The notes: a model not told the origin generated them from the letters alone. DNA of 53,632 bases from an uncultured Bacilli bacterium (GCA_934141615.1 CAKPCM010000001.1:1-53632); one strand, 5' to 3'; positions 25,565-30,725 are shown, numbered from the stretch's first letter. A program made the numbers and translations.

Positions 25565-25686
25565 CAAAATAAAAACAGATATTTTTGTAAAAAAATATTT
25601 GTTTTTTTTATTTGATACTATATTTCTACAATTTTTTTAAAAATAATTCATATAATAGATGGCTAAACGAAAGAAAGGAAAAACAT

Positions 25687-26577
25687 ATGAATTATTATAA
25701 GAAAATAAAAAACGAATTAATAAATAATGAAGTATATAAAAAAGTAAAGGATTATTCGAAAAATAGAAATGATTTAAATACGTATTATAAAGTTGGAAAA
25801 TTATTAAATGACGCTGGAAAAAGTTATGGTGAAGGAATTATAAAAAAATATTCTGATAAGTTGACCAAAGAATTTGGAAGAAAATATAATTATAGAAATC
25901 TATTTATAATGAGAAAATTTTATATTATTTTTAAAGATGAAAATGTGAACGCAATGCGTTCACAATTAAGCTGGACTCATTACAGAGAACTACTAACGCT
26001 TAATAATATAAATGAAATAAAATATTATATAAGAATATCAGAAACACAAAATTTATCTTATAGAAAGTTAAGAGAACGAATAAATTCTCGTGAGTATGAA
26101 AGACTAGACGATAAAACAAAAGAAAAACTAATTAATAAAGAAGAGATTAATGCTGGTGATTTAATAAAGGATCCAATACTTATAAGAAATAGGTTTGATA
26201 CTAATAAGATATCAGAGAAAATGCTAATGTCATTTATACTAGAAGATATACCAAGCTTTCTAAAACAACTGGGAGAAGGTTTTACTTTTATAGAAAATGA
26301 ATACCCAATAAAAATAGGAGATAGATATAACTACATATATATGCTTTTATATAACATTTATGATAATTGTTATGTTGTAATAGAACTTAAGATAAATGAA
26401 ATAAAAAAAGAACATATAGGACAAGTAGAAACGTACATGAATTTTATAGATAAAAATTTAAGAACGCTTAATCAAGGCCCAACCATTGGTATTATCGTGT
26501 GTAAAAAGAAAAATGGTTACCTATTTAAATACGTAACTAACGAAAATATTTATGAAAGAGAATACAAATTAGTATAA
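25687..26577 (+). CDS. DUF1016/YhcG-family PD-(D/E)xK nuclease-like protein (first catalytic Asp apparently missing)
   Basis: N-terminal YhcG-like helical region (SQLSWTHYRELL) and C-terminal …VVIELK…HIGQ core. Start moved to ATG 25687. Confidence 0.7.
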   Translation: MNYYKKIKNELINNEVYKKVKDYSKNRNDLNTYYKVGKLLNDAGKSYGEGIIKKYSDKLTKEFGRKYNYRNLFIMRKFYIIFKDENVNAMRSQLSWTHYRELLTLNNINEIKYYIRISETQNLSYRKLRERINSREYERLDDKTKEKLINKEEINAGDLIKDPILIRNRFDTNKISEKMLMSFILEDIPSFLKQLGEGFTFIENEYPIKIGDRYNYIYMLLYNIYDNCYVVIELKINEIKKEHIGQVETYMNFIDKNLRTLNQGPTIGIIVCKKKNGYLFKYVTNENIYEREYKLV

Positions 26578-26877: not shown

Positions 26878-26899
26878 GAAGATTTATTTCTTCTTTTTT

Positions 26900-26927
26900 T
26901 CATATTTACATATATCTTACATAATAT
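26900..26927 (+). promoter_or_regulatory. Mother-cell sigma-E-type promoter (TCATATT-13-CATAATAT) for spoIVA
   Basis: Resembles the kmATATT / CATACAMT consensus, ~30 nt upstream of the spoIVA start. Confidence 0.45.
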
Positions 26928-26958
26928 TTAATGAGATTGAAAAGAAAGTAGGGATTAT

Positions 26959-28434
26959 ATGGAAAAATACGATATCATAAAAGATATATCAAAAAGAACA
27001 GGTGGCGACATATATCTAGGTGTAGTAGGAGCGGTTAGAACGGGTAAGTCTACTTTTATAAAAAAATGTATAGAAAACTTAGTTGTTCCAAATATTAAAG
27101 ATGAATACGAAAGAAAAAGGTGTTTAGATGAAATACCTCAAACAGCTCAAGGTAAAACAATCATGACGATAGAACCTAAGTTTGTTCCTTCTAATGCCGC
27201 AACTATTGCAATAGATGATTTTACCGCAAACATAAGGTTAATTGACTGTGTTGGATATGTTATTGATGCTGCAAAAGGATACGAAGATGATAATGGTCCT
27301 CGTATGGTTAGAACTCCTTGGTATGATGAAGAAATACCTTTTGTTGAAGCAGCAGAAATAGGAACTGAAAAGGTTATTAGAGATCATTCTACAATTGGTA
27401 TAGTAGTTACAACTGATGGTAGTTTTGGTGAAATAAAAAGAGAAGATTACGTGCCTGCTGAAAAACAGGTTATAGATGAACTTAAAGAAATAGGAAAACC
27501 TTTCATAGTAGTTTTAAACTCTGCTCATCCAACACATCCTGATACTGAAAAATTAGCAGAAAGCTTAAGAGATGAGTATAAAGTTCCTGTTTTGCCAGTT
27601 AGTGTTGAGGCTATGGGAGAAAAGGAAATATATAACATATTAAAAGAGGCATTATTTGAATTTCCTGTATTAGGTGTAAATGTTAATATACCAGATTGGA
27701 TAGCTTGTTTATCTTATAAGCATCCTGTTAAAAAAGAATATATCGAAAGAATTAAAGAAAGTGTAACTGAAGTTGATAAAGTAAGAGATGTTGATACAAT
27801 AATAGAACACTTTAATGGGTGTGAGGTAATTAGTAAGGCTTATTTATCTTCGGTTGATACTGCAGAAGGTGAAATAACGATAAATCTTGAGGCTCCAGAC
27901 GGATTATATAACGAGGTTTTAAACGAAATAATTGGAACTGAAATAGATTCTAAGGCTAAATTAATTAGTTTGTTTACAGAACTTAATGAAACAAGAGAAG
28001 AATTTTCACAAGTAAAAGAAGCGATTAAAATGGTTAAACAAACTGGTTATGGTACTTCATTTCCAACGATTAAAGACATGAAACTTGCAACTCCAGAAAT
28101 AATAAAACAGGGAACTAGATACGGTGTTAAATTAAAGGCAGTAGCGCCATCTATTCATATGATAAGGGTTGATGTAGAATCAACATTTGAACCTATAATA
28201 GGATCTGAAACTCAAAGTAAGGAATTAATTGATAACTTAATGAAAGATTATGAAGCAGATCCTGATAGCGTATGGAAAAGTGAAATGTTTGGTAGAAGCT
28301 TAGATAATATAGTTCAAGAAGGAATAAGAGGTAAGTTATCACTTATGCCAGATAACATAAGACACAAACTTCAAACAACATTAACCAAGGTAGTTAATAA
28401 GGGTTCTAATAATATGATAGCTATAGTAATATAG
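26959..28434 (+). CDS. spoIVA: Stage IV sporulation protein A (spore coat morphogenetic ATPase)
   Basis: N-terminal DIYLGVVGAVRTGKSTFIKK Walker A, 491 aa, C-terminal …NMIAIVI as in SpoIVA orthologues. Confidence 0.95.
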   Translation: MEKYDIIKDISKRTGGDIYLGVVGAVRTGKSTFIKKCIENLVVPNIKDEYERKRCLDEIPQTAQGKTIMTIEPKFVPSNAATIAIDDFTANIRLIDCVGYVIDAAKGYEDDNGPRMVRTPWYDEEIPFVEAAEIGTEKVIRDHSTIGIVVTTDGSFGEIKREDYVPAEKQVIDELKEIGKPFIVVLNSAHPTHPDTEKLAESLRDEYKVPVLPVSVEAMGEKEIYNILKEALFEFPVLGVNVNIPDWIACLSYKHPVKKEYIERIKESVTEVDKVRDVDTIIEHFNGCEVISKAYLSSVDTAEGEITINLEAPDGLYNEVLNEIIGTEIDSKAKLISLFTELNETREEFSQVKEAIKMVKQTGYGTSFPTIKDMKLATPEIIKQGTRYGVKLKAVAPSIHMIRVDVESTFEPIIGSETQSKELIDNLMKDYEADPDSVWKSEMFGRSLDNIVQEGIRGKLSLMPDNIRHKLQTTLTKVVNKGSNNMIAIVI

Positions 28435-28501
28435 TTATCATTTTTTTTAAATTAAATCATGATAATTATAAAAAATGTAGACAAAATAAATTAAAATACT
28501 A

Positions 28502-28529
28502 TTGAATGATCATGCTTTTATGTTAATAT
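28502..28529 (+). promoter_or_regulatory. Sigma-A-like promoter TTGAAT-16-TAATAT (with upstream TG) for the MazG-like/DUF2075 operon
   Basis: -35 at 28502-28507 and -10 at 28524-28529, preceded by TGT. Lies in the 114-bp gap after spoIVA. Confidence 0.4.
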
Positions 28530-28548
28530 ATATAAGAGGTGTGAACTT

Positions 28549-28863
28549 ATGAGAGAATTACAAGAAAAGATAGAAAAGTTTAACAAAGATAGAGACTGGG
28601 ATCAATTTCATTCCCCAGAAAATTTAGCTAAAAGTATTTGCATAGAGGCGGGAGAATTATTAGAGTGTTTTCAGTGGAATAACGAATATGAATTAAATGA
28701 AGTTAAAGAAGAACTTGCTGACGTTTTAAACTATTGCATTTTAATGGCAAGCAAACTAGGCCTTGATCCTAAAAAAATAGTTTTGGATAAAATGGAAAAA
28801 ACAGCTAAAAAATACCCGATAGAAAAAGCAAAGGGTGTTAGTACAAAGTACACGAAATTATAG
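28549..28863 (+). CDS. MazG-like all-alpha nucleoside-triphosphate pyrophosphohydrolase (DCTPP1-like), 104 aa
   Basis: RDWDQFHSPENLAKSICIEAGELLECFQW and EELADVLNYCI metal-binding E-x-x-E / E-x-x-D helices. Confidence 0.8.
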   Translation: MRELQEKIEKFNKDRDWDQFHSPENLAKSICIEAGELLECFQWNNEYELNEVKEELADVLNYCILMASKLGLDPKKIVLDKMEKTAKKYPIEKAKGVSTKYTKL

Positions 28864-28873
28864 GAGATGTTAC

Positions 28874-30640
28874 ATGAAAGCTACAAAACCCATAATAAAG
28901 TTAATTTCGGACACAAAAGAAGGTTTGCAAAACTTTAGATGCAATTTAAATAATAGTTTAAAATATAGAGAAATAGATTTGATAAATAATTATCCTGTTG
29001 TTTATATACATGGTTGGAAAAGAAATGGTAAGTTTGAGATATATGTTGGTGAATCTGGTAATTTTTTTCGAAGAACTAAAGAACATTATGATTTAATAGA
29101 AAGTGATCAGTGGGAGCATAATCTTAAAAATAATAAAGCTTTTTTATATGTAATAACACATGAATATTTTAATAAATCTTTGACGAAGGATATAGAAAAT
29201 AAATTAATTAAATATCTATCTAGTTCTAAAAGCGTAGCAAAAGTTTATAATGTAAAAAGTAATCCACAGAATAACTATTTTTCTCAAGATAAGTTTGACA
29301 GGATTTTTGCCAAAATATGGCAGCAGCTTAGAATGTATGATAATACACTGTTTTTATCTGAAAGTATAATAGAAAGCTCTGCAATTTTTAAAGCATCACC
29401 ACTTCATAAATTAAATGAAGAGCAGTTGCTAGCAAAAGAAAAGATGCTAGAAAGTATAGATTTGTGTTTATCAAAAGATGTTAATCATCAGTTGATTTTT
29501 GTTCGTGGAAATTCAGGAACTGGTAAAACTGTTTTAATGAGTAGTGTTTTTTATGATTTCATAAATATGAAAAGAAATTCCAAAAATAAAAATCCAGAAG
29601 TGGGCATTATAGTAAATAATAAGGAACAGGTAACTATTTATGAGGAAATCGTTGATAAACTAGACCTAAATATTAATGGTGAAAAAATGGTCTTTAAGTC
29701 AACTCAGTTTATTAACTTATTTAAAAATAAAAAAAATTCACCAGCTAAGAGAACTAAAAAATACGATGTTTTGTTTGTTGATGAGGCACACTTATTATTA
29801 ACTAGAAAGAATCAGGCATATACAGAAAATGAATATCAACTAACTGAAATTATGAAGTATGCAAAAGTTGTTGTGGCAATTTTTGATAGAAGACAAATTA
29901 TGAATGCTGAACAATATTTGGGAAAAGAGGAAGTTGATAAATTTATTAACATGGCAAAACAAAACGATAGTTTTATAGAATTAAATATTCAAATGAGAAT
30001 GAAAACAAGCAAAGAATTGGAACGTTGGATAAGGGCAATTTATACTGACGGAGTAATTACAAAAGCACCAAGTAATCGTGAAAAATACGAAATAAAAATA
30101 TTTGATACTCCAAAGAAATTAGAATCAGCTATTAGAAAAAAAGCAAGTTCCAAAAAAACACCTTTGTCCCGTTTAATTGCAACGTATGATTGGAAGTATA
30201 GAGAAAACTCTAGACCAAAAAATAAAAAATATTGGGATGTTACAATAGGGGATTGGGCAATGCCGTGGAATTATGAATTATCACAAGATTTAACTTATAG
30301 GGAAAAGCAAAATATCAAGAAATTACCATGGGCACAACAACCTCATACAATTAATGAGGTTGGGTCGATTTATACAATCCATGGATTTGACTTAAATTAT
30401 GCGGGAGTTATTATAGGACCATCTATTAAATATAGAAATGGGAAAATTTTATTTGATTCATCACTTAGTTATAACGATAAGGCAAAACAAAAGCGAAAAC
30501 TTCCTGATGGAACCAGTAAGAGTTTTGGAGAGGAATTCTTACAGAACGAATTAGGAGTTCTTTTAACACGCGGGGTAAATGGTTTATATATTTACGCTTG
30601 CGATGATGCTTTAAGAGAACAATTGAAAAAATCATTATAA
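28874..30640 (+). CDS. GIY-YIG-like nuclease domain fused to a DUF2075 (Schlafen-like SF1) P-loop ATPase/helicase
   Basis: N-terminus VVYIH…EIYVGESGNFFRRTKEH…KDIENKLIKYL (GIY-YIG pattern). Walker A GNSGTGKT, Walker B VLFVDEAHLL, C-terminus GFDLNYAGVIIGPS…LLTRGVNGLYIYA. AGGAG lies 7 nt upstream and the start is 10 nt after the MazG-like stop. Confidence 0.7.
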   Translation: MKATKPIIKLISDTKEGLQNFRCNLNNSLKYREIDLINNYPVVYIHGWKRNGKFEIYVGESGNFFRRTKEHYDLIESDQWEHNLKNNKAFLYVITHEYFNKSLTKDIENKLIKYLSSSKSVAKVYNVKSNPQNNYFSQDKFDRIFAKIWQQLRMYDNTLFLSESIIESSAIFKASPLHKLNEEQLLAKEKMLESIDLCLSKDVNHQLIFVRGNSGTGKTVLMSSVFYDFINMKRNSKNKNPEVGIIVNNKEQVTIYEEIVDKLDLNINGEKMVFKSTQFINLFKNKKNSPAKRTKKYDVLFVDEAHLLLTRKNQAYTENEYQLTEIMKYAKVVVAIFDRRQIMNAEQYLGKEEVDKFINMAKQNDSFIELNIQMRMKTSKELERWIRAIYTDGVITKAPSNREKYEIKIFDTPKKLESAIRKKASSKKTPLSRLIATYDWKYRENSRPKNKKYWDVTIGDWAMPWNYELSQDLTYREKQNIKKLPWAQQPHTINEVGSIYTIHGFDLNYAGVIIGPSIKYRNGKILFDSSLSYNDKAKQKRKLPDGTSKSFGEEFLQNELGVLLTRGVNGLYIYACDDALREQLKKSL

Positions 30641-30725
30641 AAAAACAAATAATAAATGGAAGGTTAAAAATGCCTTCTTTTAATTTTTTATAAAATATAC
30701 TATAATTATATTAGGTGAATTACTT

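Follow-up and report, generated by a model that had tools for sequence, protein, structure and literature searches.

We analyzed a two-gene segment in a 53,632-nt stretch of DNA from an uncultured Bacilli bacterium (GCA_934141615.1, CAKPCM010000001.1:1-53632; the whole stretch is here called the window). Pfam profile searches place two plus-strand open reading frames (ORFs) between spoIVA (26959-28434) upstream and an operon of GT1 and GT2 glycosyltransferases (from 30726) downstream. The first encodes a small MazG-like protein and the second a fusion of a predicted GIY-YIG nuclease with a DUF2075 helicase, and this conserved accessory pair is probably a phage-defense module. The features of the locus are the following.

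28549-28863, + strand: MazG-like/DCTPP1-like all-alpha nucleoside-triphosphate pyrophosphohydrolase, 104 amino acids (aa) (PF12643, PDB match).
28874-30640, + strand: fusion of a GIY-YIG nuclease and a DUF2075 helicase (Schlafen group 3 type, superfamily 1B [SF1B]), 588 aa from the ATG (PF09848, AlphaFold2, Foldseek).
28994-29263, + strand: predicted GIY-YIG catalytic domain, approximately residues 41-130 (conserved residues, Pfam in homologs).
29489-30604, + strand: DUF2075/SF1B helicase core, residues 206-577 (range of the Pfam match).
28862-28866, + strand: AGGAG ribosome-binding site, overlapping the TAG stop codon of the MazG gene and 7 nt ahead of the large-gene ATG (read from the sequence).
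28502-28529, + strand: weak promoter-like pair, TTGAAT (28502-28507), 16 nt and TAATAT (28524-28529) (read from the sequence; below the cutoff of the consensus scan).
30658-30688, + strand: terminator-like hairpin (30658-30678; 7-bp stem with three GC pairs) followed by a T-run (scan: one site against 0.4 expected).
28450-30675 (about), + strand: inserted accessory segment of ~2.2 kb, reaching from the 3' end of spoIVA as far as the glycosyltransferase promoter region (compared with the empty site in the related contig L098).

An earlier reading of this DNA, made from the sequence alone (the sequence-only reading), had described the large gene as starting 10 nt behind the small one with an AGGAG Shine-Dalgarno sequence, and both the gap from the MazG stop to the ATG and the AGGAG are found as described. 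A mechanical ORF list starts the large gene at GTG 28835; ATG 28874 is preferred because the homologs all start at the ATG position. The downstream hairpin of that reading was also recovered, as a single terminator-like structure with a T-run. Its proposal that the pair has a promoter-like element of its own was not borne out: the TTGAAT/TAATAT pair scores under the scan cutoff, and the 18 promoter-like sites found in the region are at chance level (15.8 ± 4.5 in shuffled sequences).

The small protein carries the EAGELLE and EELADVLNY motifs that had been pointed out in it and belongs to the MazG-like family PF12643 (7.7e-21, 74.6 bits against a cutoff of 27). Its nearest solved relatives in a PDB sequence search are mammalian DCTPP1/RS21-C6 (3.5e-17). 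The metal-binding tetrad E33, E36, E55, and D58 is kept in 64 of 64 partner sequences. These four acidic ligands are the same as in DCTPP1, and W17, F20, H21, W43, Y62, K81, and Y89 are common to the window protein and mouse DCTPP1. By alignment, W17, H21, W43, Y62, K81, and Y89 occupy positions that in DCTPP1 form the aromatic and basic lining of the pocket. On account of the invariant tetrad and the common pocket residues, the small protein is predicted to be catalytically active, as opposed to a degenerate adaptor. DCTPP1 prefers 5-modified deoxycytidine triphosphate (dCTP). A specificity of this type (dCTP, 5-modified dCTP) is putative for the window protein; the pocket residues in common with mouse DCTPP1 that bear on it are W17, H21, W43, and Y62. 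The two enzymes differ in size (170 aa in mammals, 104 aa in the bacterial protein, which lacks a 10-residue loop), and no nuclease-helicase partner goes with the mammalian enzyme. For the window MazG, over 120 clusters reach at least 80% identity, while for the large protein the second-best match is at 81% and the third at 68% identity; the MazG partner is thus far better conserved than the nuclease-helicase.

The greater part of the large protein had been assigned to DUF2075/Schlafen-like P-loop ATPases. This assignment holds: PF09848 (DUF2075, now the Schlafen group 3 [SLFN-g3] helicase) matches residues 206-577 over profile positions 2-354 of 354 (1.5e-84; 284.7 bits, with the cutoff at 24). 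From a 53-homolog alignment, AlphaFold2 produced a model with a predicted local distance difference test score (pLDDT) of 86 and a predicted template modeling score (pTM) of 0.80, and Foldseek matched it to the helicases RecD (5.4e-10), Upf1 (9.5e-10), Dna2 (2.1e-9), SLFN11 (5.1e-8), and T4 Dda (2.5e-6), with SLFN14 also among the matches; by sequence, the large protein had no meaningful match in the PDB. All motifs listed in the sequence-only reading (VVYIH, EIYVGES, FFRRTKEH, DIENKLIKYL, GNSGTGKT, VLFVDEAHLL, and LLTRGVNGLYIYA) are present, including Walker A GNSGTGKT (212-219) and Walker B VDEAH (302-306), together with a motif VI-like TRG (565-567). In the homolog alignment, G212, G215-K218, D303, E304, H306, Q341, R375, R566, and G567 are invariant. 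According to the model, the protein has an SF1B helicase fold in which the Walker A, Walker B, and arginine motifs are intact; helicase activity is predicted.

The N-terminal domain required closer consideration, since the Pfam GIY-YIG match of the window protein itself stays below threshold (0.0068; 17.1 bits, where 22.6 would be needed). Members of the GIY-YIG superfamily share a beta-beta-alpha-beta-alpha core, a Tyr (GIY), a Tyr-x-Gly (YIG), an Arg about 10 residues on, and a distal Glu and Asn. In alignments of 15 to 53 homologs, Y44, Y57, G59, E60, R67, H71, and E108 show no variation and N126 shows little or none, and the predicted secondary structure follows the order strand 42-50, strand 53-61, helix 64-73, strand 90-95, and helix 101-116. 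The Tyr-to-Arg spacing of 10 equals that in UvrC. A search with the N-terminal 195 residues against 1.84 billion representatives returned 435 clusters, nearly all of them DUF2075 proteins of 560-900 aa, and several of these homologs (E = 1e-41 to 1e-25) pass the Pfam GIY-YIG threshold with 34.9-43.7 bits. A profile of 47 N-terminal domains against PDB sequences ranked two GIY-YIG nucleases, T4 EndoII (0.052) and then I-TevI (0.27), at the top, weakly. In the structural comparison, a model of residues 1-195 (pLDDT 85) gave nothing at E ≤ 1e-3 in Foldseek; the best match was the UvrC GIY-YIG domain (E = 0.08, template modeling [TM] score 0.60, probability 0.93), and UvrC matches ranged over E = 0.08-0.8 at a TM score of ~0.6. 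Because the residue pattern is invariant or almost so and homologs exceed the Pfam threshold, we consider the assignment settled, and the GIY-YIG character claimed for this N terminus stands on proper alignment: by its sequence, the domain is a divergent but genuine GIY-YIG nuclease with intact catalytic residues, for which cleavage is predicted. The pair thereby holds intact catalytic residues for three activities.

Some homologs carry further domains. The variant P0379 (742 aa) has a C-terminal LexA-like Peptidase_S24 domain (3.6e-14) behind GIY-YIG and DUF2075, which hints at RecA or DNA-damage control in that lineage. In P0387, P0411, P0442, and P0419 (780-940 aa), there are ~200 additional N-terminal residues and the query domain is matched in two to three stretches, with a Pfam-significant GIY-YIG near the N terminus and the best query match at about 220-400; these proteins appear to have tandem GIY-YIG-like domains before the helicase.

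To follow the conservation of the pairing, one genome per species was scanned. At least 566 stretches encode a relative of the large protein, and the best 80 loci were analyzed; the protein clusters hold more than 2,700 full-length homologs. Relatives come mostly from gut Firmicutes, plus Bacillus and Lactobacillaceae plasmids. The sequence-only reading had suggested a neighborhood survey for a conserved MazG partner, and such a partner was found: in 71 of the 80 loci (89%) a MazG-like gene directly adjoins the large gene on the same strand, mostly with gaps of 12-60 nt, upstream of it in ~18 loci and downstream in ~53. Clustering of the flanking ORFs revealed no other family in more than seven loci. 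Pairwise divergence of the one protein correlates with that of the other (Mantel test, Spearman 0.30, p about 0.001). Lactobacillaceae plasmids carry the pair with 41-44% identity to the window protein, and megaplasmids of the Bacillus cereus group encode MazG followed by a 560-aa GIY-YIG-DUF2075 protein (26% identity; at least 20 cross-matched records). MazG homologs 84-88% identical to that of the window occur in other genomic places, where a DUF2075 gene again follows.

Since the adjacency survives both permutation of the gene order and total loss of synteny, there is strong evidence that MazG and the large gene form a functional unit. That two unrelated genes came to lie side by side by accident is next to impossible. 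Nothing speaks for such a coincidence beyond the lack of a described functional link, and it is excluded by the conservation data, namely by the same-strand pairing, which 71 of 80 species show in one gene order or the other and between unrelated flanks, and by the plasmid copies at 26-44% identity. A strict tie of MazG to DUF2075 was rejected as well: distant MazG homologs adjoin topoisomerase III in Paenibacillus or a transposase in Simkania. Conversely, a 31%-identical B. cereus homolog of the large protein lies beside Wadjet without MazG.

The position of the pair in the window is a variable one. Contigs with a SpoIVA identical to that of the window carry the pair, and relatives with 86-94% identical SpoIVA keep the gene order der, spoVIF, spoIVA, GT1, GT2, GT2, ABC transporter. 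In these relatives, the slot between spoIVA and GT1 holds SoFic, a metallophosphatase with a small ORF, SoFic with three further genes, or nothing. A full-length SoFic homolog occupies it in L094 (6619-7695), L096 (6618-7691), and L097 (6618-7691), whose SpoIVA is 92-94% identical (the L094 copy is matched over its full length by PADLOC, 2.6e-85). In L095, a metallophosphatase and a 125-aa ORF are found in the slot although its SpoIVA sequence is identical to that of a SoFic-carrying contig. In the empty site of L098, GT1 follows spoIVA after 73 nt. The window and L098 share the left flank '...tatagttatc(a)tttttt' and the right flank 'ttttaatttt..ataaaatatactataatt', between which the insert replaces ~13 nt; at its boundaries, neither direct repeats of att type nor terminal inverted repeats were detected, only low-complexity A/T matches. 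The slot is thus a cargo hotspot that elsewhere holds the validated defense gene SoFic. A lone housekeeping MazG gene beside spoIVA, which the sequence-only reading had named as the finding that would make the adjacency accidental, does not occur in relatives with the same flanking synteny.

Other positions nearby vary too. Between der and spoVIF, the window encodes a YhcG/DUF1016 PD-(D/E)XK nuclease (25612-26577, + strand; YhcG_C 1.4e-30, PADLOC PDC-S02 6.2e-60), which in relatives of the same synteny is replaced by a hypothetical gene for 213-224 aa or by one for a Mur ligase. The position, ~2 kb upstream of the spoIVA-GT1 slot, has the look of another variable cargo site. The gap between spoVIF and spoIVA measures 81 nt in the window (26878-26958), and relatives have there a gene for 275-356 aa with no Pfam or PADLOC match.

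Elsewhere, the pair lies in defense-rich neighborhoods. One recurrent neighbor in the 80 loci is a SauUSI-like type IV methyl-directed enzyme with a phospholipase D (PLD) nuclease, a helicase, and DUF3427 (PADLOC mREase_IV, 4.7e-182), which lies within 6 kb of the large gene in 7 of the 80 loci; together with their NUDIX partners, such enzymes are the commonest defense neighbors. Other recurrent neighbors are NUDIX (PDC-S07, 5.9e-49), an HNH protein, a second small ORF resembling nucleoside triphosphate (NTP) pyrophosphatases, Fic (PDC-S04), a DEDDh-BRCT exonuclease (PDC-S48), and PDC-S46. A PADLOC scan of 130 immediate neighbors, which counts per family and not per protein, revealed among others Thoeris ThsB (3.7e-109), Cas9, AbiLi, PDC-M12A (4e-146), and AriA. 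On plasmids, the pair is accompanied by a type I restriction-modification (RM) system and an integrase, or elsewhere by NUDIX, zeta toxin, HNH, and IS200/TnpB genes. On an L. plantarum plasmid, the genes for NUDIX, a SauUSI-like enzyme, MazG, and the large protein are consecutive, with a DUF2357 gene also near. In Priestia aryabhattai, plasmid NZ_CP083270 (L107, 3349-7255) carries an operon for NUDIX/MutT, a MrcB_N protein (1.5e-51), MazG, and a 621-aa DUF2075 protein, in which the MazG start overlaps the preceding stop, and a type I RM system comes after the operon. MrcB_N is the DNA-binding domain of McrB, which depends on 5-methylcytosine (5mC). The neighborhoods show a recurring link to readers of 5mC and 5-hydroxymethylcytosine (5hmC).

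A recurring island was observed in L010 (6001-12995), L026 (6001-12724), L039 (2517-9521), and L034 (6001-9496), in slightly variable order: GIY-YIG-DUF2075, MazG, a 99-aa NTP-pyrophosphatase-like ORF (no Pfam match), a 383-aa HNH_4 protein, a SauUSI-like enzyme, and NUDIX (PDC-S07). Some of these loci do not have all six genes.

In four loci, a second DUF2075 paralog with a different head lies directly beside the same MazG gene. It comprises 622-632 aa and starts with MIVYDGTK... or MIIYEATK...; a D...E-x-K motif read from its sequence is suggestive of a PD-(D/E)XK head, and the L071 copy matches the PADLOC profiles of AbiO (4.5e-18) and Nhi (2.1e-15). The paralogs of L016 (3729-5606) and L071 (2250-4118) adjoin MazG and thus form DUF2075-MazG-DUF2075 triplets, and in L013 (2995-4893) the paralog lies upstream of the pair, at a distance of ~1 kb that includes one ORF. 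MazG is therefore found with DUF2075 helicases whose nuclease heads are of two or more kinds, repeatedly beside readers of modified cytosine. Two copies are decaying: in L058 (5992-7746; an Anaerostipes metagenome-assembled genome), a frameshift divides the large gene into two ORFs and MazG is absent, and in L076 (8068-9926) the second paralog is likewise split. An origin as a phage gene was rejected, given three weak matches to the large gene in 50,697 phage records and four loci in IMG/VR; it is a cellular or plasmid gene.

These data also bear on the possibility that the pair serves genome maintenance, with MazG sanitizing a damaged or noncanonical deoxynucleoside triphosphate (dNTP) and the GIY-YIG helicase removing the same lesion or resolving stalled replication, in parallel to the UvrC/Slx1-type GIY-YIG repair nucleases and the replication-stress function of Schlafen 11. 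The best structural match of the head is indeed a UvrC domain, DCTPP1-like enzymes are house-cleaning enzymes, and MazG is strongly conserved; moreover, some loci lie amid housekeeping genes including Tag glycosylase, NUDIX/MutT genes recur nearby, and one variant contains the LexA-like Peptidase_S24 domain. We nevertheless consider a maintenance role unlikely. The pair is variably present, and sister strains have SoFic in its slot; plasmid copies are found beside RM, Wadjet, and toxin genes, and Thoeris, Cas9, and AbiL are among the immediate neighbors. Synteny is not conserved across the 80 species, and pseudogenized copies such as that of L058 exist.

The accessory distribution and the adjacency to defense genes are, qualitatively, those by which defense systems are generally recognized, and the defense-type reading proposed earlier for this pair gains support from the pairing in 71 of 80 loci and from the defense-like context. 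On balance, we think it somewhat probable that the two genes are a self-contained, horizontally exchanged anti-phage (anti-foreign-DNA) module that combines an Nhi-type effector with a dCTP-type sanitizer; we infer for it a defense phenotype, a DNA target, a nucleotide substrate, and a division of labor between both proteins. The large protein would be the effector, whose DUF2075/Schlafen-type SF1B motor would move along DNA using ATP and bring the N-terminal GIY-YIG endonuclease to replicating or base-modified foreign DNA. The small protein would be a constitutively active DCTPP1-like dNTP pyrophosphohydrolase specific for noncanonical dCTP-type nucleotides. Most likely, it would destroy modified dCTP-type nucleotides that are made by the phage, freed by degradation of modified DNA, or derived from salvage. 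Their removal could starve phages that need modified nucleotides, and it could keep modified bases off the host chromosome, where the nuclease would turn on the host.

Alternatively, the nuclease-helicase might sense phage DNA or replication intermediates and activate MazG, or both might be co-activated, whereupon MazG would hydrolyze canonical dNTPs or NTPs in bulk and starve the phage in a manner resembling abortive infection. Depletion of the nucleotide pool is a validated strategy, used by the dCTP deaminase and dGTPase defense systems, and the invariant MazG active site would suit it, as would the tight coupling of the genes (gaps of 10-60 nt, stop and start signals partly overlapping). 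MazG is also among the predicted, not experimentally validated defense domains of DefensePredictor (2026 paper). We judge triggered depletion to be improbable, since the 104-aa MazG is a minimal enzyme without a sensor or regulatory domain, its closest characterized relatives are house-cleaning enzymes, none of 10 long variants is a fusion of MazG to the large protein, and some genomes encode the large protein but no MazG. Sanitizing seems preferable to bulk depletion because of this minimal architecture and the house-cleaning relatives, and because the pair has islands in common with 5mC/5hmC-dependent nucleases that have NUDIX partners.

A more specific form of the sanitizing role, which we put forward tentatively and regard as rather doubtful, is that MazG protects against autoimmunity by clearing modified dCTP-type nucleotides (5-methyl, 5-hydroxymethyl, or similar) and so sparing the host chromosome the bases that the nuclease-helicase or co-resident type IV enzymes would attack. 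If so, it would point to a general rule that nucleases of modified DNA travel with a sanitizer of the nucleotide pool, with SauUSI and NUDIX, MrcB_N with MazG and DUF2075, and GIY-YIG-DUF2075 with MazG as examples, and the small protein would be a bacterial counterpart to the protection of the mammalian epigenome by DCTPP1.

Several findings weigh against a defense module of this kind. Nine of the 80 loci have no detectable MazG (in two of them the contig ends at the large gene), from which it follows that the partner is not strictly required. The conservation of MazG, with its more than 120 clusters at 80% identity or above, is unusually high for a defense gene, and the surroundings in L090-L093 are of a housekeeping kind (Q-salvage, HD, Tag glycosylase, cation ATPase). 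The richness in defense neighbors is a raw figure without normalization to the genome background and lends qualitative support. In the large protein, a Pfam search detected no recognizable reader domain for modified bases. The PADLOC profiles of Nhi and AbiO do not match the window protein at E ≤ 0.01, and the other PADLOC models gave two weak matches, one of the GIY-YIG region to the candidate PDC-S14 (6e-7) and one to mad8 (2.2e-5), and otherwise none for either protein. Finally, the only related candidate that has been assayed, 'Pyrophosphatase' (Millman et al. 2022, Table S2), pairs a 98-aa MazG-like protein with a 643-aa DUF2075 protein (MIIYEATK type); the construct SG192 from Bacillus firmus LK28 is marked 'x', no defense having been observed, while SG193 from B. 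thuringiensis Lr3/2 is listed as 'Cloning failed'. That trial concerned a different head domain in a single host (Millman et al. 2022).

The failed cloning could reflect toxicity and thus fit a further explanation, in which a toxic nuclease-helicase is neutralized by MazG, either through binding or by taking away a nucleotide that serves as its cofactor or activator. The compact operon of two genes, one of them small, would agree with such a toxin-antitoxin-like arrangement, and both gene orders are seen, as in many toxin-antitoxin families. We hold it to be very unlikely: several genomes and B. cereus plasmids have the large gene but no MazG, MazG homologs without DUF2075 occur beside other genes, and the invariant catalytic tetrad points to an enzymatic and not merely a binding role.

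Among known systems, one of the closest is the 'Pyrophosphatase' candidate, which is not a validated system and bears no proper name, and it qualifies the sequence-only reading that the pair is no named system. PADLOC and NCBIfam indeed yield no named match (in NCBIfam nothing above cutoff), but a MazG gene with a DUF2075 gene had already been chosen as a defense candidate by Millman et al. 2022. Both pairs have the same two-gene layout of a ~100-aa MazG and a DUF2075 protein, and the two MazG proteins are 47% identical. The DUF2075 protein of the candidate (619-643 aa, MIIYEATK...) has another N-terminal domain, in which a D...E-x-K motif, again read from the sequence, suggests PD-(D/E)XK. 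GIY-YIG-DUF2075 fusions have been mentioned in passing in earlier literature, and our literature search found no paper on both DUF2075 and MazG, and none that joins Schlafen, MazG, and phage.

Nhi (PD-(D/E)XK and DUF2075; SERP2475 of Staphylococcus epidermidis) is a validated single-gene defense, and so is 'Nhi-like' of Bacillus cereus FSL H8-0482 (Millman et al. 2022), which is unrelated to Nhi in sequence. Both share with the window protein an N-terminal nuclease and a C-terminal DUF2075 SF1B helicase as well as an accessory distribution in defense islands, and an ATP-using attack on foreign DNA is predicted for them as for the window protein. Nhi has a PD-(D/E)XK head and acts as a single gene, whereas the window protein has a predicted GIY-YIG head and a MazG partner in 89% of the sampled genomes; this head and the conserved partner are what distinguishes the pair from the known nuclease-DUF2075 defense proteins. 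Judged by sequence profiles, the window protein shares the architecture of Nhi and lies outside the Nhi/AbiO family.

Nuclease-DUF2075 proteins such as Nhi and Nhi-like are relatives of the human Schlafens. The helicase domain of the group III Schlafens (SLFN11, SLFN5, SLFN13, and SLFN14), which have antiviral and replication-stress roles, belongs to the same family PF09848; the eukaryotic proteins have an N-terminal Schlafen tRNA/rRNA nuclease core in place of GIY-YIG and no MazG partner. SauUSI with its NUDIX partner is likewise a combination of a nuclease-helicase with a small (d)NTP pyrophosphohydrolase, and the two pairs are often adjacent. They differ in that SauUSI has a PLD nuclease, an SF2 helicase, and a partner of the NUDIX fold, and in that it contains a 5mC/5hmC reader (DUF3427) that the window protein lacks. 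At least 60 SauUSI-like genes are linked to a NUDIX pyrophosphohydrolase whose role was left unexplained (SauUSI paper, 2011). The role of the small enzyme, once shown, would also explain this NUDIX partner and would link sanitation of the nucleotide pool with nucleic-acid immunity.

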